Below, one piece after another: positions 12,826-53,170 of a stretch of DNA of 57,307 bases. The notes below the pieces were generated by a model. The model did no database searches and was not told where the DNA came from. It saw only the letters and a program-made list of their open reading frames with translations. This DNA is from an uncultured Gammaproteobacteria bacterium (lineage in GTDB: Bacteria; Patescibacteriota; Patescibacteriia; UBA9570; JBBTWU01). A program made the position numbers and the translations under genes. The stretch is from assembly GCA_964364425.1 (NCBI GenBank), contig CAYIMB010000003.1:1-57307 (forward strand). The letters run 5' to 3'. Positions within the stretch are counted from its first letter, which is position 1. Each line of letters begins with the position of its first letter.

Positions 12826-12956
12826 CCCTTTTTTATTCAAAATATTATAAATTCCCACGTTCCCAAAGCTCTTGTGTGAGATGTAGCCATAAATACAGGA
12901 TAAAAGCCTAATCCTGCCTTTCCGGCTGCATCTAACCCATTCAAGGAGGTGTTGAG

Positions 12957-13406
12957 ATGACTACAGTGACTCTGTCCCCCGTGATCCTGGAGCCGCCTTC
13001 CACGGGCTTCGTACGTGACAAGCGTTCCGAAGGTTGGGACCTGCTGCAAGCGGGCTGCCAGGTCGAGGGCGAATCCGTCCTGGAGCTGGCCGGATTCCTG
13101 CTCCTGGGTGAGGAATACGTTAACGGCCGGGTCATGCGTTACCGCTCCCTGGAGATGGGTGGCCGCACGGGCCAGCATCACGCCGAGCGTATGCTCGTCC
13201 AGGTTGAGGCCATCCCCACGGAGTGGCGCGAGTTCTACCTGGCGTTCCCAGACACCCTTTGGCGGCGCCCCGGCCGCTGCCTCTTTGTCCCGTGCCTGCG
13301 CTGGCGCGACGGCAGGTGGGTGCTTAACTTCCGCTGCGTCGTCCGCGACGCCCGCTGGAACGACGACCATCGGGTCGTCCGCGTCTGCAAGCAGCCTGGG
13401 TCCTAG
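12957..13406 (+). CDS. Hypothetical protein, DGR-target/C-type-lectin-like C-terminus (GC-rich solo gene)
   Basis: AAGGAGGT RBS; C-terminus VPCLRW...WVLNF...W.DDHRVVRV. Confidence 0.65.
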   Translation: MTTVTLSPVILEPPSTGFVRDKRSEGWDLLQAGCQVEGESVLELAGFLLLGEEYVNGRVMRYRSLEMGGRTGQHHAERMLVQVEAIPTEWREFYLAFPDTLWRRPGRCLFVPCLRWRDGRWVLNFRCVVRDARWNDDHRVVRVCKQPGS

Positions 13407-13435
13407 GCGGCCACTTGGATCCGGTTCCGTGTCCC

Positions 13436-13506
13436 TGCACCTTCAACACCCCTGTTTCGGAGGAATCCCTCGCGGGATTCTACTGGACAGGGGGGGTGTT
13501 GTGTTT
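13436..13506 (+). terminator. TGCACCTTCAAC motif plus long hairpin and T-rich tail
   Basis: CAACACCCCTGT...GAATCCC-TCGC-GGGATTC...ACAGGGGGGGTGTTG-TGTTTT. Confidence 0.65.
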
Positions 13507-16500
13507 TAAGAGGTCTGTTGCAAATCGTTTAGCTGTTTTATCCAACGCATGAGAGTCTTGACCCAATCCTCACCTAAGTCCTCTTTATATACCCGCACCG
13601 TCCGTTCATCCACGCGTTCAAACGGTTGTTCAACAAATCCATACGCTATTGGATTCATGGTTTTGATGATAATTTTCTCACTCGGTAAACCATTATTCTT
13701 GTTAGGATAATTGGTATCTATAGATACAATCTGAGAGGATTGAATGAGTAAACGAATTTCAAACAGATCAAATAATTGTTTAAACTCATACGCTTTGGGT
13801 TCCCAGGTGTGCCTGGCTTTGCGTAACTCTTCTTCATCACGAATATTTGCAAATTGTTGATAGAGTAAAATTCGTTCACCTTCATCCGGCACCACATCTT
13901 CAGGGATGGTGGTGGACAGGGGAATATCAATCGGTACATCTCTAATGAGTGGCTGCATTTTCCCTTGCTTGAGTTCTGCCACAGCAGAGGAGAGGAGGCG
14001 AGAGTAGTAATTCAGACCAATGGTTTCTGCGTGTCCATGCTGATTTTTACCCAAAATAGAACCAACGCCGCGAATTTCCATATCACGCATAGCCAGTTCA
14101 AATCCCACACCAAGCTCTTGTGCTTCTTCTAAAGCCTTCAGACGCATCTTGGCTTCATCTGTCAGATCACGCGAATGGTAAAAGAAATATGCATAGGCTT
14201 GAGTTGTCCCACGACCAATCCGGCCACGCAGTTGATGCAGTTGAGCCAGACCAAAGTTGGTGGCTCGTTCCACAATTAAGGTGTTGGCCTGCGGAATATC
14301 AAGACCATTTTCTATAATAGTAGAACAGACTAGGATATCCACCTGTTGGGTATCAAAAGCATGCATGACGCCTGCCAGTTCACTTTCTGGAAGCTGTCCA
14401 TGACCCACGCCAATCCGAACCGCCGGAAACCATTGTTGTAATTCATGAGCTTTGGCTTGAATGGTGTCTACGTCATTGTGCAGGAAATACACTTGACCTT
14501 TGCGGGCAAGCTCACGGGTGATGGCTGACTTCACTAATTCAGAGTCGTACGGAGTCACAAAGGATTCAATTCCCAGACGTCCGGGTGGAGGAGTGGTGAT
14601 GGTGGAAATGCCTCGTACGCCACTGAGCGCCAAGTGCAAAGTGCGGGGGAGAGGTGTGGCACTGAGAGTCAGTACGTGTGCTTCAGAGCGGAGTTTACGC
14701 AAGACTTCTTTTTGCTTCACACCAAAGCGTTGTTCTTCATCTATGATGACTAAACCCAAGTTTTTGAATTTTACGTCTTTGGACAGAATCCGGTGTGTGC
14801 CAATGACAATATCCACATTTCCGGCGGCCAACCTCTTTACAGTGTCTTTTTGATCTGCGGCGGTACGGAAGCGGGAAAGAAGTCCTACGTTGAACCCGGT
14901 GTTGGCCAAACGACGCTCAAATGTATCAAAATGTTGCTGAACCAAAATGGTTGTTGGTGCTAGGACGGTCACCTGCATGCCTTGTGCCAACACACGCACT
15001 GCAGCCCGCAGAGCCACTTCTGTTTTTCCAAACCCCACGTCACCACATAACAAGCGGTCCATAGGTGTGTCCTTGGCTAAGTCTGCATACACCGCTTCAA
15101 GTCCAGTCTGTTGATCTTCCGTGAGTTCATACGGGAAACCAGCATTCACTTGTTCCTCAAGCTCTTGGTGTGGAGTGATGGGCCTGGCTTTGGCTAATTC
15201 CCGTTGGGCATAAATCTTGAGCAACTCCTGAGCTAGCTCAAGCGTGTGTTTTTGCACATGACGCACGGCCGTTTCCCAAGTGGCATCATGCAGTGAATGC
15301 ACTTTGGGGTGAGCTGAACCTACATATTTTTCTACGCGGTCGGCTGTTTCAGCCGGAACATACAACTTATCTTTGCCGGCGTATTCCAAAATTAAATAAT
15401 CCCGTTTCATCCCATTCACTTCCATCACTGTTGTTCCGCTAAACCGCGCCACACCGTGATACACATGCACCACATAATCTCTAGGAGTAATGGACAAGAC
15501 TAGGGGTGATCCAGCACCAGCTGTTTTTGAGATCGATTTTCTGGTGTTGGTATGTTTCTTCACCCACTCCGCACCAAACACATCCGCATCACCTATTAAA
15601 CAAAAATTTCGTTCCTGGTCAGTAAACCCTTCTAATTCCAAGGTAGTTTCCCGTACATCCAAGCTCACAGATTCGGCGAGCGGTTTGAGTTGTTTGTGTG
15701 TTGCGTCTGAAAACTGAGTGGCTACCCAACGCCGTTCAAATTGTTTGACCGTCCGAAAAAGTTCTTCTAATCCAACGCTGGAAGGTGGAAGTCGGCGTTG
15801 GTGAGTAGCCATCACCCCATCCATCACAAAATGAGACAAGGTCAGCACCGCCGCACGTTGCGTGGGAAGGGGAGTATCTTCTTCATGAATAATGAGTCGG
15901 TCTCGGACATTATCCAAGAGTGTATATGTTCCTTTTCCGGCCAAAGAGCATGGGTAGAAGGTCACCGCGCTAGTGACTGCCGCCGCATCTCCTGACTGAC
16001 TGATTCGTTCAATACTTCCAATCCGGTCATAGTCCCACTGAATGCGGAAATGATTGTTGAGTGATCCAAACACATCAACCACATCTCCAATCACAGAAAA
16101 GGTTCCTACTTGCTCTGCCTTTTTCCCCACCCGGTCATACCCAGCTAAGCTGAGTCGTTCGACCACATTACTTTGAGCCAGTTTAGTATCAACGGCTAAC
16201 TGGAAAGTCAGTTCACGCACGTCACGGGGCGAAACGGTGGAGGTATCTAAAGAGTCCGGGTAAGCCAGCAGTACATCTACCCCAAGCGCCGCACCAGGCG
16301 CCGCATTTGTCCATTCTTCTATATCTACCGAGGGTTGAAAAAACAGCAACGCTTGCCGCAACCAGTCGGCCTCCTTTTTACTCTTGGCCAAATACAAAAC
16401 CCGCCTGTATTTCAATACAGGGGGGAGGGTCTGGCTGAGAAAAAAGACGATTCCGGTCAGATGCGCGAACCCGCCAATCACCTTTTCTTGACCCACAGCC

Positions 16501-16611: not shown

Positions 16612-16735
16612 TTCCGTACGCACACATATTTTGCGACACTTGCACGTGCAGACTAAAAAACATTCAGATTACTTATACTTTACCCTGTGCGTACGCACAC
16701 AATCTGAGCCGAATACGTTTTGCGACACATGCCAT
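16612..16735. repeat. Palindrome cluster A (CGTACGCACACA..TTTTGCGACAC twice, TGCACGTGCA, TGTGCGTACGCACA)
   Basis: Motifs recur, inverted, at 24314-24413. Confidence 0.7.
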
Positions 16736-16765
16736 CGCACACCTCAAAACCTAACCAATTTGTCC

Positions 16766-16799: not shown

Positions 16800-17000
16800 T
16801 CCGAGGCAGTTGCCCATACCATGTCGTGCCAAAGATTTGAGTCGTTCATTAACCCTCCTTGATGAACGATTCGTCTCTGGTGCGGCATAGTGCGGGAAAC
16901 CAATTCGTGAAATTCGCCGTTTGAAGTCCTTGTGTAAAGTGCATGAGAACCCTCCTTCTCATGTTGCCTTGCGCAGGGGCTTGAACCGGCGAATTTTTTA
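16800..17000 (+). ncRNA. Candidate sRNA: two long hairpins with identical CCCUCC loops
   Basis: Hairpins 16813-16896 and 16911-16995 with many G-U pairs on the + strand; promoter upstream, U-run downstream. Confidence 0.75.
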
Positions 17001-17001
17001 T

Positions 17002-17096
17002 TTCGATTTTCACGCACAGAGCGCAAGGACGGCTCAGAGGGGTCCGCTCATCCGGGAGCTTCAATCACCCTTCTTCGCGGACCCCTCTTCCGCCGC
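17002..17096 (-). repeat. Dispersed structured repeat, copy A
   Basis: Aligns with 24457-24551; 12-bp stem AGAGGGGTCCGC/GCGGACCCCTCT. Confidence 0.85.
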
Positions 17097-17117
17097 TCGC
17101 TTTGTATTCCTAAAAAA

Positions 17118-17423
17118 TCAAAATAAATTTTCCATGTGACAAAGTACCTTTCCACCGGTATCCTTAAGGGTTTTTTCAGCCACGCCGTAATCAATAATGG
17201 GAATACGTTCCAGGGTATAGGGAGTAATATCCAAACCAACCTCTTCCAGTACCTCGCGGGTCATGGCTTGTTCAAAAGTCTCTCCCTCATCCACACCTCC
17301 TCCGGGAGTATGCCAACAATCTAGGTACACCCCGCCTTTAGACGGATCCTTTCTCCCCAGGAGAAGTTTGTTGTCCTGACTGAAAATAAGGGCCGCTACA
17401 ATTGTTCTCTGTATTTCCCGCAT
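17118..17423 (-). CDS. NUDIX hydrolase, probably C-terminally truncated
   Basis: Nudix box GGGVDEGETFEQAMTREVLEEVG; only 101 aa. Confidence 0.75.
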   Translation of the reverse strand: MREIQRTIVAALIFSQDNKLLLGRKDPSKGGVYLDCWHTPGGGVDEGETFEQAMTREVLEEVGLDITPYTLERIPIIDYGVAEKTLKDTGGKVLCHMENLF

Positions 17424-17432
17424 GGCCTGATG

Positions 17433-18023
17433 TTATTTAGCAAACTTTGTGTTCCACTCATTCATGGTGGCGTCTATCCCTTCCAGAATAAATGTTTGGA
17501 CGGCTTGAGATGCTTTTTTGGCCAAAGACTTCACCACCTTTTGTTCTGCCGGTTTGAATTCACCCAAAATATAATCCACAATATTTTTAATCCCGCCAGC
17601 GCTCCGCGGCCCAACACCAAAGCGCAGGCGCCCAACTTCTTCTGTTTTGAGTAAGCGCAAAATTCCACCTAAACCCTTATGTCCTCCATTGGAACCCATT
17701 TTGCGTACGCGCAACGTTCCTAAGGGTAAATCCTTATCATCATACATAACCAAGATATGTTCCGGTTTTGTTTTCCCAACTACCTGAGCCACCACTTTTC
17801 CCGAGTTATTCATCATCTTCATAGGCTTCACCAACACCACGCTTTGGGACTTCACTTTGGTTTTGGCGGTCATGGCGCCGGAGTATTTGTCCAGTTTCCA
17901 ATCGTCCTTTTTTACGCCCAAGTCCTTAGCTAGCTGGTCTATGACTATAAACCCAGAACTATGTCTGGACCAAACATACTCTTCTCCTGGATTCCCTAAA
18001 CCAATGACAAATTTTGTGGCCAT
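17433..18023 (-). CDS. pth: Peptidyl-tRNA hydrolase
   Basis: GLGNPG, MNNSG, GGHKG. Confidence 0.93.
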   Translation of the reverse strand: MATKFVIGLGNPGEEYVWSRHSSGFIVIDQLAKDLGVKKDDWKLDKYSGAMTAKTKVKSQSVVLVKPMKMMNNSGKVVAQVVGKTKPEHILVMYDDKDLPLGTLRVRKMGSNGGHKGLGGILRLLKTEEVGRLRFGVGPRSAGGIKNIVDYILGEFKPAEQKVVKSLAKKASQAVQTFILEGIDATMNEWNTKFAK

Positions 18024-18035
18024 ACGTTGTGTAGG

Positions 18036-19427
18036 TTACTTATAGTCGGGCTGTGCCCGTGAAGTTATAAATATTGGAGTGCCTAAAAATTCAAATTCTT
18101 CGCGCAAGTGTTTTTCCACTAACTGCACTACGGCTGGAGCTAAGTGTCTTGGTTTTGGAGTGTAGATGACAAATGTGGGAGCTGCCATAGACACTTGAGT
18201 CATACCAACCAACTTTAACAGAGGGCGTTTCTTTCCATGTGCTACATCAACTCTGGCTTTAGGATTATATTTATTTTCCACGGTACGTAACACATTCTCA
18301 CATTCGTCATCAGTTAGGAATTTATTCCGTTCTTCCTGGACTTCCAAGACTAAATCCAGTACGTCCTTCAAGCGTTGCTTGTTCACGCTTGAGATAAACA
18401 CCATTGGTGCCCAAGACAGGAATGGTAGCTGTGAAGAGAAGTATTTAATGTATTGGTTGATAGTATCTGCAGTTTTATCTGGAACCAAGTCCCATTTGTT
18501 GACGGCAATAATCACTCCGCGACGACTTTCCTTAATCAACTCAGCTAACCGTTTGTCCTGATCAGTCACTTCTTTGTTTGCTTCTAACACCAAAACAATC
18601 ACGTCCGCAATCTTCATGGCATTCAGAGAAGAGTGGACGCTCTCGCGTTCAATCGACTTCAAATTTCCTTCTGATTGGTTAAGTAATTTGCTGCGGCGTC
18701 TGATCCCGGCGGTGTCTAACAACACCATGGGTCTTTCTTTATAGGTAAACTCAGATTGGTTGATATCTCTGGTGGTGTGAGCAACAGAAGACACAATGGC
18801 GCGTTCTTCACCCACTAAGGCGTTCAAGAAAGAACTCTTTCCCACATTTGGTCTTCCCACAATAGCAATCTTGATTTCAGGTTCAAGCGGCTTTTCTTTG
18901 CTGACCGGAAGCAGTTTAGTCATTTCATCCAATAAGTCACCAGTCCCGGATCCATTTGTTGCCGACAAAAAGATGACCGTTTTAAATCCTAATCCAAATG
19001 CCTCTGTTTGCGCTTCTTGCCTCACAGTTTGTGTATCACATTTGTTCACAGCCAAAATAACTGGCTTGCCGGACTCACGCAGCTCACGGGCAATGCGCCG
19101 GTCTTCTGGAGAAATGCCGACGCGTCCATCTACCACAAACACTAACACCTCGGAACTTTCAATGGCGCGTCTGGCGTAGTCTTCTATAGCGCGGTCCAGC
19201 TCTTCTTTGCCTAGCTGGTCCAACCCTCCGGTATCAACTAACTCAAATGTCGCTTTATTCCAACCAACCACAGAAGTATTCCAATCCCGTGTTGTCCCGG
19301 GCATGGGTGAAACAATTGCCTTCCGTTTTTCTGCTAAGCGGTTAAACAAGGTCGATTTTCCCACGTTGGCTCGCCCCACAAGGGAAACCTTAGGGAGTTT
19401 TTGAGTGATGATTTGTGATGAGTTCAT
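18036..19427 (-). CDS. der: Ribosome biogenesis GTPase Der/EngA
   Basis: Two G domains: GRANVGKST/DTGG/NKCD and GRPNVGKSS/DTAG/NKWD. Confidence 0.96.
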   Translation of the reverse strand: MNSSQIITQKLPKVSLVGRANVGKSTLFNRLAEKRKAIVSPMPGTTRDWNTSVVGWNKATFELVDTGGLDQLGKEELDRAIEDYARRAIESSEVLVFVVDGRVGISPEDRRIARELRESGKPVILAVNKCDTQTVRQEAQTEAFGLGFKTVIFLSATNGSGTGDLLDEMTKLLPVSKEKPLEPEIKIAIVGRPNVGKSSFLNALVGEERAIVSSVAHTTRDINQSEFTYKERPMVLLDTAGIRRRSKLLNQSEGNLKSIERESVHSSLNAMKIADVIVLVLEANKEVTDQDKRLAELIKESRRGVIIAVNKWDLVPDKTADTINQYIKYFSSQLPFLSWAPMVFISSVNKQRLKDVLDLVLEVQEERNKFLTDDECENVLRTVENKYNPKARVDVAHGKKRPLLKLVGMTQVSMAAPTFVIYTPKPRHLAPAVVQLVEKHLREEFEFLGTPIFITSRAQPDYK

Positions 19428-20866
19428 TCGTTTGCTTTTTCAGCCACGCTATAGTCCAGCCCCAGGACAACAATAAAGTCTGTTCCAGGCGGAACTTCTT
19501 TAGTGTTGACTACGGCCGGATCTAATGCAGTTTCAGTGACCGTTTTGATGTGTTGTGTCCCTACGTGCAACAGGCTGGCTAACTCATCTAAGGCCACTGG
19601 CTTTTCTCCAGCGCTCAGATCAAAAATCAAAGTAGTGGCGTTATCTCGTACCTCTGCATTGGCAATGGTCGTTACATCAAAATGGCTGTTGCGTAACACT
19701 TCGGCTGTCCGCGCACCTAAACCCGTGACCTTTGATCCGTTTTGAATAACTACGGTCGGCTCCTCTTTCACTAACTCCGGTTGATCAAACACGGTACTGG
19801 CCATTTGTTGAATTTCTGAGAAGTCACCCAAACCTACTTTGGGCAACAACACATATGCGCCGGTTTCCGGAACAATTTCAGACGTTAAAAATCCACCCTC
19901 ACCTTGATCAATGACTCGACTCACCATATTTTCAGACGGAATATCTCTTGCCAAGGCGCCAAGGTGGGCAAGCTCCCAGATTTCCGCATTGGTGCGCACA
20001 TGGTCGCCTAAACTGGTGAAGATTGACAAAATTTTGGTGGGATTTAAGAGAGTTCCGGCGGACAACAAGTCTTCCCGTACGGCGTTGATAATAATTTGTT
20101 GCCGGGCTGACCGGGCGAAGTCGGAGTTTTCTCCGTGGTTGCCGTGACGGGAGCGGGCAAACTGCAAGGCTTGTTCACCTGTGAAATGACGCCAGCCTTG
20201 TTCAAAGCTAACGGTTTGGTAGCCGTAATTATAGTCTGGGTACTGGCTGTCCGTGAAAGAATTTTCCACATACACATCCACGCCACCCATGTCATCAATG
20301 ATTTGGCGGAACCCGTCAAAATCTACGCTGACATAATAGTGGAGAGGCAACCCCAAGACCTCTTCCACCTTTTCTTGCGCAAACTCCACGCCGCCGTAGT
20401 CCAAGGCGTAGTTTATTTTCCGCCATTCTTGCTCTGCTGGTTTTTTTCCACCAAAGTTCACCACCAAATCACGCGGAATGGAAATCATGACCACCTCGTC
20501 TGTTGAGGGTTTAATGGACGCCACCATAATGGTGTCCGTCAGCCCCCCGCCCGGGTGTCCGTCTCCGCCATAGCCTAAAATCAAAATATTGATGCGGTCA
20601 GCCTTTTCACCTTTTACCGGTTCTTCTTTGGTGGCAGATAAAATTCCCAATTGCTTCCACAAGCTGTCAGTATTGCTGTCAATAATTTTATCTTGAGCTG
20701 ATAACACCACACTAGACACTGCTCCTCCAATCATACCCCACAAGATCAAAGCCACCCCCACCAGGCCGGTGAGGACCATACGGGCGTGGGTAGGAACGGC
20801 GGTTTCTGAGGGTATGGCAGGTTCTACGGGTTCTGTTGGACCATCAAAAGGCAAGTCATACTTCAT
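19424..20866 (-). CDS. LCP (LytR-CpsA-Psr) family protein with LytR C-terminal domain
   Basis: TDTIMV, SIPRD, FARSR, SDFARSARQ, IQNGS..GLG; probable start ATG 20866. Confidence 0.9.
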   Translation of the reverse strand: MKYDLPFDGPTEPVEPAIPSETAVPTHARMVLTGLVGVALILWGMIGGAVSSVVLSAQDKIIDSNTDSLWKQLGILSATKEEPVKGEKADRINILILGYGGDGHPGGGLTDTIMVASIKPSTDEVVMISIPRDLVVNFGGKKPAEQEWRKINYALDYGGVEFAQEKVEEVLGLPLHYYVSVDFDGFRQIIDDMGGVDVYVENSFTDSQYPDYNYGYQTVSFEQGWRHFTGEQALQFARSRHGNHGENSDFARSARQQIIINAVREDLLSAGTLLNPTKILSIFTSLGDHVRTNAEIWELAHLGALARDIPSENMVSRVIDQGEGGFLTSEIVPETGAYVLLPKVGLGDFSEIQQMASTVFDQPELVKEEPTVVIQNGSKVTGLGARTAEVLRNSHFDVTTIANAEVRDNATTLIFDLSAGEKPVALDELASLLHVGTQHIKTVTETALDPAVVNTKEVPPGTDFIVVLGLDYSVAEKANE

Positions 20867-20920
20867 GCAACGATTATATTGATTTTTTATGCCTTTCGTC
20901 AACTGTGCTATACTTTTTTC

Positions 20921-21802
20921 ATGACCAATTTCACGCGATCTGTTTTGTGGTCTATCAGTAGCCTAGCCTTGGCTGTTTTTTTGGTCTGGAGTGTGAGCCC
21001 GCAACCAGTCGTGGCTTTAGTTGTGGTCCCCAACCGGGTGACCCAGGCCGTTGATTTGGGAGAAACATTCAACAAAAAAATTCGGATCACAAATGAAACA
21101 ACGACTGACCAAAGCTACACGCTCAGCCTTCAGCCGTTTGAGTTTGGTTTGCGCGGAGAATTACTATTGAACCAGGGGTCTACTGCGGCAGTTTCCTGGT
21201 TGAGCTTGGATCAGACACAAGTGAGCGTGGTCCCGGGACAAACCGCAGAGGTCAGTCTAACGGTGATTGTTCCCGCAGACGCTCAATCAGGTGGGTATGC
21301 TGCCGCAGTGGTGGTGAGTCCGGCCACTGGATCCACAGAAGTAGTGACCAGTACGCAAATCATGCTGAACGTCAAAGGCGGGTTGCAGCAGGCGGCTAAA
21401 TTTTCTGTGTTTTCTGTAGACGATACGGTTTATACACCCGGACAACAGATTCAGTTTCAGGTGGAATTTGAAAATACCGGGAACGCCAACCTAACGCCCA
21501 TTGGGCAGATTGACCTGTATAGAGGAGAGGACTGGATAGGCGATATTCCACTCAACCCCAAAAAACAACTGGTATTAGCAGGGGCGACACGAAATTTTGA
21601 TGTTACTTGGAATTCCACGTTGGGTTTTGGGAAGTACACGGCGCAAGCCACGGTGAATGCCGAAAACGATTTGCAGGCAGAGTCTCAACCGGTCAGTTTC
21701 TGGATCCTGAGTTGGGAACGAGTGATCCCGGTGGTAGTGGCCTTGATCACTTTTTTGATTGCCGCTTCAGTCCTGTTGCGCCACCCAGCCAAACAGAATT
21801 GA
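20921..21802 (+). CDS. Exported Ig-like protein (DUF916/WxL-interacting-like), C-terminal TM anchor
   Basis: Signal peptide, VPADAQSGGY, FENTGN motifs. Confidence 0.6.
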   Translation: MTNFTRSVLWSISSLALAVFLVWSVSPQPVVALVVVPNRVTQAVDLGETFNKKIRITNETTTDQSYTLSLQPFEFGLRGELLLNQGSTAAVSWLSLDQTQVSVVPGQTAEVSLTVIVPADAQSGGYAAAVVVSPATGSTEVVTSTQIMLNVKGGLQQAAKFSVFSVDDTVYTPGQQIQFQVEFENTGNANLTPIGQIDLYRGEDWIGDIPLNPKKQLVLAGATRNFDVTWNSTLGFGKYTAQATVNAENDLQAESQPVSFWILSWERVIPVVVALITFLIAASVLLRHPAKQN

Positions 21803-21852
21803 CCAAAGCCAAAAAATGGCATATACTTGGCCTAATTTGATAAATTTTGGGT

Positions 21853-22434
21853 ATGTTCATGAATGAATCACAACGTTCTGCTGTGCGCAGGACAGTCAGA
21901 AATTCCTTAGAGTTTCTCTGGGAGGTACTAAAAGTAGTGATTGTGGTGTTTGCCATTATCATTCCTGTTCGGCATTACCTGATTAAGCCCTTTTATGTCC
22001 GGGGGGCCTCTATGGAACCTAACTTTCATGATTATGAATATTTGGTAGTGGATGAGCTGTCGTATAGGCTACGTGCACCGGAGAGAGGAGAAGTGGTCGT
22101 GTTGAAAGATCCCTTAGACCCCAGCCAGTATTTTATCAAACGTATAGTTGGTCTGCCGGGAGAACATATTGTAGTGAGAGACGGCACCGTACGGATTAAT
22201 GGAAAGAAGTTAGATGAAACTCAATACCTAGACGACTCTGTTCGCACCACCGGACATGATGATGTGACTCTTCAGGAGGGCGAATATTACCTCATGGGAG
22301 ATAATCGAACAGCCAGTTTGGATTCACGCGTGTTTGGACCGTTAGACAAAAGTGAGTTTGTTGGCCGAACATGGATTAGAGCCTGGCCACTGACGGAGAT
22401 CGAATTATTTTCCCCTTTTACTTATCCAGAATAA
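21853..22434 (+). CDS. lepB: Signal peptidase I
   Basis: GASMEPN, FIKRIVGLPG, GDNRTASLDSR. Confidence 0.95.
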   Translation: MFMNESQRSAVRRTVRNSLEFLWEVLKVVIVVFAIIIPVRHYLIKPFYVRGASMEPNFHDYEYLVVDELSYRLRAPERGEVVVLKDPLDPSQYFIKRIVGLPGEHIVVRDGTVRINGKKLDETQYLDDSVRTTGHDDVTLQEGEYYLMGDNRTASLDSRVFGPLDKSEFVGRTWIRAWPLTEIELFSPFTYPE

Positions 22435-22439
22435 AGCTT

Positions 22440-23924
22440 ATGCCAAAGACAACTAAAAAAGCTGCCCCTAAGACAGCCGTTGCAGAACAGGTCGTCAAAC
22501 TGAAAATTCCTAAAACCAAAGGACAGCTCCAGTTGGTCAGAGGGATGAGAGATATTTTGCCTAATGAACAGCCATATTGGCAGTTTGTGGTGCGCAAGTG
22601 CGAACACATGGCTGAGGTGTATGGGTACGACCGGATTGATACGCCTATAGTAGAACACACTTCGTTGTTTGTCCGGGCTGTGGGTGAAGCCACTGACATT
22701 GTAGAAAAGGAAATGTACGCCTTTCAGGATAAAAGCGGCGAGTACATTGCCTTACGTCCGGAGTTGACGGCCGGTATTGCCCGGGCCTATGTAGAACACG
22801 GTATGGTGAACCAGCCACAACCGGTGAAGTTGTTTAGCTGGGGTCCGTTTTTCCGGCATGACCGACCGCAAGCCGGACGGTACCGCCAAGCACACCACTT
22901 TGGTGCGGAAATTATTGGGTCAGCTGAACCTATTTTGGATGCTGAACTGATTAGTATTGCGTATCACTTGTACCAAGAGCTAGGTTTAGATGTGGTGGTG
23001 CAAGTCAACAGTATTGGTGATGCCGCTTGCCGGCCGGCCTACCGCGGTCAACTTATGGAGTATTATAAGAAACATAAACGCGAGTTGTGTGAGGACTGTA
23101 AACGTCGTTTGGCTAAGAATCCATTGCGTTTGTTGGACTGTAAAGTAGACCACTGCAAAGAGCTGGCTCAAAACGCACCCCAGACCATAGACCATTTATG
23201 TGAGGAATGTAAAACGCACTTTACGCAAGTTTTGGAATATTTGGATAGTGCTGAAATTGTGTATCAACTGAATCCACGGATTGTGCGCGGTTTGGATTAC
23301 TATACGCGGACAGCCTTTGAGTTTGCTTTGCCAGGTGAGAACGGTGAGCCGGGCATGGCCTTAGGAGGCGGCGGACGGTATGACGGATTGTTGGCCAGTT
23401 TGGGTGCGCGGGAGGCCACCCCGGCGGTTGGCTTTGGATTGGGGATAGAGCGGATCATTCTGGCCATGAAGGAACGGAATGTGCCTATGTTGTTGCCTCC
23501 ACGGCCGGACGTGTTTTTTGCTCAGATAGGAGCCAGCGCACGGAAGCGTTCACTCAAGATATTAGAAGACTTGCGCAAAGCTGGATTCCGTGTCCGGGCT
23601 AACCTGACTAGAGAAGCACTTGGTCCCCAGCTTGGTTTGGCTGATAGATATGGTGCACGCTTTGCTTTGATTTTAGGACAAAAAGAAATTATTGATGAGA
23701 CTATTCTGTTGCGTGAAATGCTGACTGGCTCACAAGAAGTGATTGATATTGAAAAAATGATTCCTGAATTGAAGAAGCGTTTGGACAAACTTGGCCCAGA
23801 TACTGAACAGCGCATGGTGACCCCCATGCAAGAGGCTGGCGATCCAAATGCTCAACCCGGAGAAGATGGGGAGGGTTTCAAACCGCCGGTTGAAGATGTA
23901 GCCGATGAGAAAAAGGGAAAATAG
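22440..23924 (+). CDS. hisS: Histidyl-tRNA synthetase
   Basis: LRPELTA, RHDRPQAGRYRQ, RGLDYY, GGGRYDGL. Confidence 0.97.
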   Translation: MPKTTKKAAPKTAVAEQVVKLKIPKTKGQLQLVRGMRDILPNEQPYWQFVVRKCEHMAEVYGYDRIDTPIVEHTSLFVRAVGEATDIVEKEMYAFQDKSGEYIALRPELTAGIARAYVEHGMVNQPQPVKLFSWGPFFRHDRPQAGRYRQAHHFGAEIIGSAEPILDAELISIAYHLYQELGLDVVVQVNSIGDAACRPAYRGQLMEYYKKHKRELCEDCKRRLAKNPLRLLDCKVDHCKELAQNAPQTIDHLCEECKTHFTQVLEYLDSAEIVYQLNPRIVRGLDYYTRTAFEFALPGENGEPGMALGGGGRYDGLLASLGAREATPAVGFGLGIERIILAMKERNVPMLLPPRPDVFFAQIGASARKRSLKILEDLRKAGFRVRANLTREALGPQLGLADRYGARFALILGQKEIIDETILLREMLTGSQEVIDIEKMIPELKKRLDKLGPDTEQRMVTPMQEAGDPNAQPGEDGEGFKPPVEDVADEKKGK

Positions 23925-23926
23925 GT

Positions 23927-24277
23927 ATGGAAGACTGCATCTTTTGTAAAATAGTGGCCAAGCAAATTCCGGCTGACATTAAGTTTGAGGATAATGAGAT
24001 TCTAGTTTTCAAAGACATTGCCCCAAAAGCTAAAATCCATTGGTTGGTTGTGCCTAAGAAACACATCCCTTCACTACAAGCATTGACTAGCGAGGATTCC
24101 AAGTTAGCCGGACATCTCATCATGAACATTCCAACCATTGCTTTTAAGGCAGGAGTAAATGAAACCGGCTATAAAGTATTTATGAATACAGGTCCTCATG
24201 GAGAACAAGTTGTTCCACATATCCACATGCACTTAATGGGCGGAGAGCCGCTGCATGGACCAACTCGAGTAAGCTAA
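23927..24277 (+). CDS. hinT: HIT-family nucleotide-binding protein
   Basis: DCIFCKI; HIHMH histidine triad. Confidence 0.9.
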   Translation: MEDCIFCKIVAKQIPADIKFEDNEILVFKDIAPKAKIHWLVVPKKHIPSLQALTSEDSKLAGHLIMNIPTIAFKAGVNETGYKVFMNTGPHGEQVVPHIHMHLMGGEPLHGPTRVS

Positions 24278-24313
24278 ATCAAAATGGGGATTTCTTCTAG
24301 TAGAGTGTGCACA

Positions 24314-24413
24314 TTGTATGTGTCGTAAAAGATGCGTGCGTACGCACGCCTGAATCTTTAGGATTTGTCATCTTTTTCTGCCCGGGCAGAAATAGGGGTC
24401 TGCACGTGCAGAC
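24314..24413. repeat. Palindrome cluster B, with perfect 16-mers GCGTGCGTACGCACGC and GTCTGCACGTGCAGAC
   Basis: Palindromes at 24334-24349 and 24398-24413; homologous to cluster A. Confidence 0.7.
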
Positions 24414-24456
24414 TTTTGTCGCCTTAGCTGAATGATGGCGGTAGAGGGTCGATACG

Positions 24457-24551
24457 GCGGCGTAAGAGGGGTCTGCGAAGAAGGGTGTTTGAAGCTCCCG
24501 GATGAGCAGACCCCTCTGAGCCGTCTTTGTCGTTCTCTGCTGAAAATCGAA
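24457..24551 (+). repeat. Dispersed structured repeat, copy B
   Basis: Stem AGAGGGGTCTGC/GCAGACCCCTCT; aligns with the reverse complement of 17002-17096. Confidence 0.85.
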
Positions 24552-24626
24552 TTTGACCTAGTTCCAAAAAAATTGTAGAATTTTGGTACCTATGAACAGG
24601 ATTTATTTTGCAAAGGAGGTGGCACT

Positions 24627-53097: not shown

Positions 53098-53170
53098 GTT
53101 CGTTTGGGAGGCAATGAGGTGTGAATCCTCAACAGTGCCGCTACCGTAAAGTCGGAAAACTCCAACGGAC
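53098..53170 (+). ncRNA. Compact cobalamin riboswitch
   Basis: GGGAG..GAGGTGTGAATCCTC-AACAGTGCCGCTACCGTAA-AGTCGGAAAA resembles the Cbl core and B12 box; closing stem GTTCGTTTGGGAG/CTCCAACGGAC. Confidence 0.75.

Follow-up and report, generated by a model that had tools for sequence, protein, structure and literature searches.

A lineage-restricted hairpin repeat of REP/RPE-like character in a Patescibacteriota genome

Two hairpins at the ends of translation-related genes

The stretch of DNA studied here, called the window, comprises positions 1 to 57,307 of contig CAYIMB010000003.1 of assembly GCA_964364425.1, from an uncultured bacterium that GTDB places in the Patescibacteriota. It contains two similar hairpins, copies A and B: A lies downstream of genes for EngA/Der, Pth and a NUDIX protein, and B downstream of genes for HisS and a HIT protein, a gene context that was correctly given in a preliminary description made from the window's letters. 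That description took the pair for a dispersed repeat of about 95 bp carrying a kink-turn, either functional as RNA or a non-autonomous mobile element of an undescribed family. The two copies belong to a family, here called F1, that is a real, uncatalogued hairpin repeat confined to this bacterium and its close kin.

Copies A (17002-17096, minus strand) and B (24457-24551, plus strand) do align over the length first proposed, at 90.6% over 96 nt (E 1.7e-30), and form the window's longest inverted repeat (73 nt at 93%), but the conserved unit is about 62 nt and not 95. The 12-bp stem, nine of whose twelve pairs had been quoted, reads AGAGGGGTCCGC/GCGGACCCCTCT in A and AGAGGGGTCTGC/GCAGACCCCTCT in B, and the C-G to T-A double change between the two stems is present, as are the letters GC-GAAGAA opposite GGATGA-GC in both copies. 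Both also have the TGAAAATCGAA ends; the 3' decamer of these ends, however, is a motif in its own right, present 199 times in the genome. Each copy folds far more stably than its composition predicts, with RNA z-scores of -5.1 (A) and -4.6 (B), none of 200 shuffles being equally stable, and DNA z-scores of -4.5 and -4.2. The coordinates of these features are collected in Table 1.

A family of nineteen copies

The search for further copies that the preliminary description called for was productive. In the host assembly (1.17 Mb, 99.8% complete; labelled G000, with contigs C1, C2 and so on), iterated nhmmer finds 17 copies at E < 1e-3, with no comparable match in the reversed genome, and a covariance model trained on 18 copies recovers 19 in total, with E-values from 1e-27 to 2e-9. 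The core of about 62 nt comprises, from the outside in, an outer GC stem, a GNA/GA internal loop, the 12-bp stem, a 6x6 loop, GGG/CCC and the apical loop TGATTGAAGCT, which is near-invariant across the copies. The proposed check for covariation also came out positively: the score is 0.47, against 0.19 for shuffled alignments, a test inflated by the relatedness of the copies, and at most 0.18 when the structure is slid. In the alignment, 86.6% of the cells are paired and double changes occur in 18 of the 22 pairs; three copies have closed the outer loop into plain pairs.

All genomes used for comparison come from outside the host's family. The covariance model has no match in 31 other genomes of the order, nor in 150 of the class (two overlapping sets). 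Rfam 15 yields no match at the gathering threshold and, at E <= 10, only chance matches at the copies, and exact-pattern scans of genome, viral and metagenome contig collections, from which near relatives may be missing, returned 0 each. The proposal of a non-autonomous mobile element of an undescribed family is supported, in the sense that Rfam or scan matches outside the lineage are lacking. The host occurs in groundwater sequencing runs, a habitat that, together with the size of the genome, makes a member of the Patescibacteria likely. In three runs of one study the contigs of relatives pile up on the F1 core, 6 to 10 contigs per run: close kin therefore carry many copies. Searches of the open-access literature listed no description of such repeats, or of uptake sequences, in Patescibacteria.

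The inner loop

The letters GAA-GA opposite GA, on which the reading of a Kt-7-like kink-turn (K-turn) was based, are found in only 9 of the 18 aligned copies, A and B among them. A standard K-turn has a 3-nt bulge, G·A and A·G pairs and a non-canonical (NC) helix, with the bulge base L3 pointing into solvent (PMC4316175). In F1, no copy among the 18 has more than two of the four NC-helix pairs at positions 3-6, and in 17 of 18 copies the nucleotide assigned to L3 has a partner on the other strand (columns 29-54; A-T in 12, G-C in 5). Since it covaries with this partner as a Watson-Crick pair, the loop is symmetric, a 6x6 G·A loop made of tandem G·A pairs, a Watson-Crick pair and GNA/GNA; the tandem G·A is kept in 16 of 18 copies, and three copies change the next G·A to C-G. 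Forcing copies A and B into a K-turn would make their 3b-3n pair Watson-Crick, a pair that prevents ion-induced folding (PMC4382518), and neither an L7Ae-family gene nor a Nop protein or domain was found in the assembly. The K-turn reading of F1 is largely refuted: the likeness to Kt-7 (PMC4316175) is one of letters, in half of the copies, and F1 differs from it in the missing NC helix, the symmetric loop, the covarying L3 and the lack of a detected L7Ae. The case illustrates how a K-turn called from two copies can prove to be a symmetric G·A loop.

Another likeness is to the sheared G·A "zipper" of HSat3 DNA (PMC11014236), in which a GNA/GNA segment flanked by G·A pairs stands beside an A-T pair; this is a resemblance and no more, and the middle bases of F1 vary. 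We also considered a TIGR array or box C/D guide RNA, and rejected it: no Nop domain was found, and the copies are dispersed and self-complementary.

Orientation of the copies

Orientation was read by eye from crude open reading frame (ORF) calls and Rfam context. Ten of the 19 copies are sense, five lie between convergent genes and four are antisense-only (sense versus antisense, p = 0.18). The antisense-only copies are one after groEL, one after rpoC (presumed gene names, from the translations), one at C1:64680 with a plus-strand gene on each side, and the one in atpG. An RNA element held in sense orientation, as first proposed, does not agree with these four copies, nor with the atpG copy, which relatives have in one orientation or the other.

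At the locus of copy A itself, a relative's contig in a sequencing run, X7, joins the element to the end of pth on the opposite strand (depth 16, with 39 nt on the shorter side), and another contig keeps the orientation of copy A; we see in this a weak hint of flipping.

One site in atpG, several occupants

The sole coding copy of the 19 lies at C1:41923-41984, antisense and in frame within a variable loop of the gamma subunit of ATP synthase. In the host, the segment of atpG that encodes the loop is 135 nt long and has a folding energy of -50 kcal/mol; the corresponding values for 24 other genomes of the order and class are 48-123 nt and -4 to -27 kcal/mol.

Ten AtpG proteins, the host's own included and labelled P0001 to P0010, are 60-100% identical to the query region, and all others are at most 50% identical. 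The occupants of their loops were identified as peptides matched to six-frame translations of F1 copies, where background scores reach about 34. By this measure, F1 is antisense in the loops of P0001, P0004 and P0006 (scores 116, 71 and 94), and sense in those of P0003 and P0008 (79 and 66); P0009 has F1-like arms around a different centre, a partial form with score 56. The loops of P0002 and P0005 match, by eye, the translation of a second family, F3, and P0007 and P0010 have a short loop without insert.

In a tree computed with the loop excluded, P0001, P0002, P0003 and P0005 form a clade with support 95/96 and branches of 0.01-0.05, whose sister (83/93) is the short-loop P0007; P0004 joins P0009 (99/96), and 5 of the 9 inner branches are unresolved. 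Three kinds of occupant within one shallow clade require repeated insertion, inversion or replacement. A single protein loop thus displays empty, sense, antisense and other-family states in very close relatives, and offers a natural experiment on these three processes.

At the atpG site, run X7 has a loose end that was examined as a possible flipped copy. Since it matches an outer arm that several relatives keep whatever the occupant, we do not take it as proving a flip. Queries with the atpG insert peptide, in either orientation, recovered the query alone and missed the known carriers, and are therefore too insensitive to bear on other coding insertions.

Arms, sister families and a genome-wide motif

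The outer arms of F1 are specific to each locus: with their own flanks the copies fold at -59.2 kcal/mol, compared with -51.3 (sd 5.1) for swapped flanks, about 8 kcal/mol better, and for 9 of the 19 copies no swapped partner folds as well as their own. Within the core, mismatches on the element strand are A·G in 95 cases versus C·T in 2, a bias that favours folding of the element strand. In the outer arms, whose alignments are over-extended in places, G·T outnumbers A·C by 61 to 30 (p = 0.0015), which again favours the element strand.

The GNA/GA junction is shared. A genome scan for stable hairpins with such a loop gives 19 matches, of which 12 are F1, 4 of an F2 type, 2 F3 and one an unrelated coding match; the reversed genome gives 1. 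Other small palindrome families, with 8, 15, 10 and 9 copies, are nested in one another, and 5 of the 19 F1 copies lie within 250 nt of such a family against a 10% background, a weak enrichment from which copy A falls just outside. One family of 10 copies is REPIN-like: its outer arms are conserved (GAAGAGCG...CGCTCTTC), and other palindrome families are often lodged in its variable centre.

The decamer adjoining both window copies includes the heptamer AAATCGA, which occurs 680 times in the genome where a third-order model expects 57, a 12-fold excess, with 438 occurrences in ORFs and equal numbers on the two strands. Many of its occurrences overlap stop codons, and it makes up 98 AAATCGATTT palindromes. 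The heptamer is lineage-specific; beside the two sites next to A and B, the window has 8 more. The 199 genome copies of TGHAAATCGA compare with 0-24 in 40 relatives. The decamer follows 7 of the 19 F1 copies within 45 nt, against a background of 4% (p = 7e-6). Being enriched near F1 and yet genome-wide, it has a link to the element and is all the same a genome signature distinct from it. AAATCGA is a candidate DNA uptake sequence or HIP-like motif (highly iterated palindrome), in a genome where ComEC and DprA genes are present.

How the family may have spread

We hold it somewhat more probable than not that F1 is a lineage-restricted hairpin repeat of the type of repetitive extragenic palindromes (REP) and Rickettsia palindromic elements (RPE), likely spread as a folded single-stranded DNA cassette, with exchange predicted to take place at hairpin tips. 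In such a scheme, the purine-rich element strand would fold; the GNA/GA junction common to F1, F2 and F3, together with the apical loop, may provide the features that are recognised; and the cassette would be moved by a nuclease or recombinase acting in trans, or by recombination through the inverted arms during DNA uptake. It could then be placed at the tip of resident hairpins, inverted there, or exchanged for sister hairpins. Copies at the 3' ends of genes would persist; in this genome, in which Rho was not detected, some of them may have a second role in terminating transcripts or stabilising their 3' ends.

Several observations weigh against this scheme. The check for target-site duplications, suggested in the preliminary description, gave none: direct repeats are at 5.6 nt against a background of 5.3. 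A fixed GTAG/CGTC tag is absent from the aligned flanks; in the 25 nt upstream, 6 of 19 copies have GT[A/G]G and 0 of 19 have CGTC. Sense copies outnumber antisense ones, orientation obeys no strict rule relative to GC skew or replication strand, and the outer arms of the four antisense copies show no clear bias of G·T over A·C (12 versus 8, p = 0.50). The occupants of the relatives' atpG loops are identified from peptides. Sheared G·A loops are stable in RNA as well, so the F1 loop does not decide between DNA and RNA. Finally, the assembly contains no cognate transposase among the types looked for: no Y1/RAYT, IS110, TnpB or HUH-motif protein.

The last negative has a limit of its own. Two recurring 55-nt sequences with related termini lie at the ends of contigs C6, C10, C11, C12, C13, C21, C25, C31, C34, C35 and C41, and are likely the termini of a collapsed insertion sequence (IS), which we take to be IS256-like, missing from the assembly. 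The repeated contig ends suggest that multi-copy elements have been collapsed out of the assembly. Of the enzymes that are present, two tyrosine recombinases and a 73-aa GIY-YIG match are not linked to F1 copies, and the same is true of a reverse transcriptase and of a nine-copy protein family listed in Table 1. The latter has no match over cut-off (five members scanned against Pfam, four against NCBIfam); its C-terminal part is, we assume, HNH-like, and some copies contain the palindrome TGCACGTGCA.

Alternatively, F1 could be primarily a structured RNA in the manner of the SPRITE elements. It would serve as an intrinsic terminator of unusual size or would stabilise 3' ends, its apical loop would bind a protein, and selection acting on mRNA would maintain copies that have spread from one gene end to another. 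For most copies the distance to a gene 3' end is indeed no more than about 190 nt, and five are between convergent genes; Rho was not found, and the outer arms have the G·T excess given above. At least 6 T in the 8 nt after the core are found in 6 of 19 copies, and on the other strand in 8 of 19, counts made without a background estimate. We nevertheless judge this reading unlikely: the copy in atpG is in frame and occurs in either orientation, four copies are antisense-only, the 8 nt that follow the core contain only 3 T in A and 5 in B, and a terminator scan restricted to loops of 3-8 nt picked out neither of them. A secondary role in termination is plausible for some copies, and is not evident for A or B.

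A bolder form of the cassette scheme, which we regard as rather improbable, would make the unrelated modules F1, F2 and F3 parts of a hairpin-cassette exchange system, inserted, inverted and replaced through the GNA/GA junction by a novel single-strand recombinase or by the uptake machinery, even in atpG, with neither target duplication nor terminal repeats, and with AAATCGA as the uptake signal.

It is less probable again that no dedicated enzyme is involved, and that template switching at quasi-palindromes, together with RecA/DprA-assisted recombination through short inverted arms, flips, corrects and swaps the centres in a competent cell. The lack of a transposase in the assembly and the presence of ComEC and DprA are in line with this, as are stems that differ by perfect double changes, the three copies with a closed outer loop, and outer arms that mirror the local sequence. 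Such a process does not readily explain how the repeat reached 19 unrelated loci or why its apical loop is near-invariant, and arms of about 10-20 bp are short for RecA.

An RNA kink-turn bound by an L7Ae-family protein, to which the letters of nine copies would point, is left with hardly any probability by the missing helix, the paired L3 and the missing protein partners.

Relation to known repeats

Stem-loop repeat families are common in bacteria (PMC2267715), and REPs are recognised as folded single strands by TnpA(REP) (PMC8266576). F1 resembles REPs and the bacterial interspersed mosaic elements (BIME) built from them in being a strand-specific imperfect hairpin with conserved mismatches, multi-copy and extragenic, occasionally intragenic, and part of palindrome mosaics (PMC8266576, PMC3733652, PMC2817692); the REP dimers inserted within longer palindromes, described by Di Nocera et al. 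(PMC3733652), are a precedent. It differs in its core of about 62 nt versus 20-40 bp, in having no constant GTAG/CGTC tag and no Y1 transposase in the assembly, and in that its centre is conserved and its ends variable.

With the RPEs of Rickettsia (PMC10969869) F1 shares the presence of a palindromic repeat both between genes and in frame in a housekeeping protein, and the atpG insertion is of this kind, the protein being conserved and the site empty in some relatives. It differs from them in several ways: F1 is shorter than the RPEs of about 150 bp, only 1 of its 19 copies is coding, and its site has both orientations and a second family as alternative occupants. The SPRITE repeats of Streptococcus pneumoniae, for which a role in termination was proposed (PMC3049150), are likewise present in a few tens of copies near gene 3' ends or between convergent genes, with a long stem and neither a clear target duplication nor a cognate IS; in contrast to them, F1 is GC-rich, has conserved G·A internal loops and apical loop, lacks a constant U-tract and has one coding insertion.

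Two other classes were rejected. An IS-derived MITE, the miniature type of transposable element with inverted repeats, should have conserved terminal inverted repeats and target duplications, and the ends of F1 differ by locus, with direct repeats at background; integron attC sites are presumably recognisable by their end motifs, and none of attC type is found in the F1 alignment. F1 works like REP and RPE elements, fails the membership tests of REPs and MITEs, and is not a K-turn RNA. Its significance for the biology of the host is modest, that of a lineage-restricted repeat of a familiar kind.

Other features of the window and genome

Table 1. Coordinates of F1 copies A and B and of associated features. 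Positions without a contig number are those of the window; G000 is the host assembly.
Feature	Position	Strand	Remark
Copy A, conserved core of about 62 nt (F1)	17031..17092	-	E 3.5e-26
Copy A, 12-bp stem	17036..17088 (17088-17077 with 17047-17036)	-	
Copy A, inside the stem	6x6 G·A loop 17076-17071 / 17053-17048; apical loop 17067-17057	-	symmetric loop, GGG/CCC, 11-nt apical loop
Copy A, outer GNA/GA internal loop	17034..17091	-	GGA 17091-17089 opposite GA 17035-17034
TGAAAATCGA adjoining copy A	17003..17012	-	genome-wide over-represented motif, outside the core
Copy B, conserved core of about 62 nt (F1)	24461..24522	+	E 2.1e-26
Copy B, 12-bp stem	24465..24517 (24465-24476 with 24506-24517)	+	
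Copy B, inside the stem	symmetric loop 24477-24482 / 24500-24505; apical loop 24486-24496	+	
Copy B with locus-specific outer arms	24438..24542	+	about 20 further pairs including G·T
TGAAAATCGA adjoining copy B	24541..24550	+	
Sigma-70-like promoter match (TTGACC-17-TAGAAT), just 3' of copy B	24553..24581	+	consensus match only; a single match, where shuffles give 0.7
Cluster of other small palindrome families (Pa, Pb)	16615..16760		about 270 nt from copy A
Small-palindrome cluster	24304..24420		directly upstream of copy B
Families F2/F3 with GNA/GA junction	G000 C6:17907-17956, C20:1444-1494, C7:11952-12002, C7:35750; C2:24585-24656, C14:16436-16506, C14:11429-11484		
REPIN-like family	G000 C10:465-543, C29:4597-4696, C29:3182-3280, C35:5898-5976, C38:2981-3024, others		
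Reverse transcriptase (347 aa), similar to those of diversity-generating retroelements, with Avd on the opposite strand	G000 C11:19160-20586		no link to any F1 copy
Nine-copy family of proteins of about 310 aa	G000 C11:30261-31262, C27:13538-14533, C14:3533-4468, C6:3409-4338, C21:632-1549, 4 more		no link to F1

Immediately past copy A, the window has a single-copy, long imperfect hairpin at 16906-16999, with arms at 16910-16937 and 16969-16996. A further repeat, of six copies, is found in the window at 12829-13514 and elsewhere in the assembly at C2:1-673, C2:55935-56674, C7:45767-46258, C10:34559-34848 and C15:1-287; it is composed of a conserved upstream stretch of inverted-repeat character and a small ORF (177 aa, 12837-13370 in the window), which has no Pfam or NCBIfam match.

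Between 25385 and 33883 the window encodes a protein of 2832 aa, with the N-terminus of a type IV secretion system (T4SS) pilin, immunoglobulin (Ig)-like domains and TSP3 repeats; a search of metagenome contigs with this protein found no related locus. Outside the window, an ORF at C22:144-626 lies inside a 23S rRNA match and likely encodes an intron-borne endonuclease, its start being, we presume, LAGLIDADG-like. Lastly, an AdoCbl-II riboswitch match is found in the window at 53098-53170, with 40.7 bits against a gathering score of 36.5.

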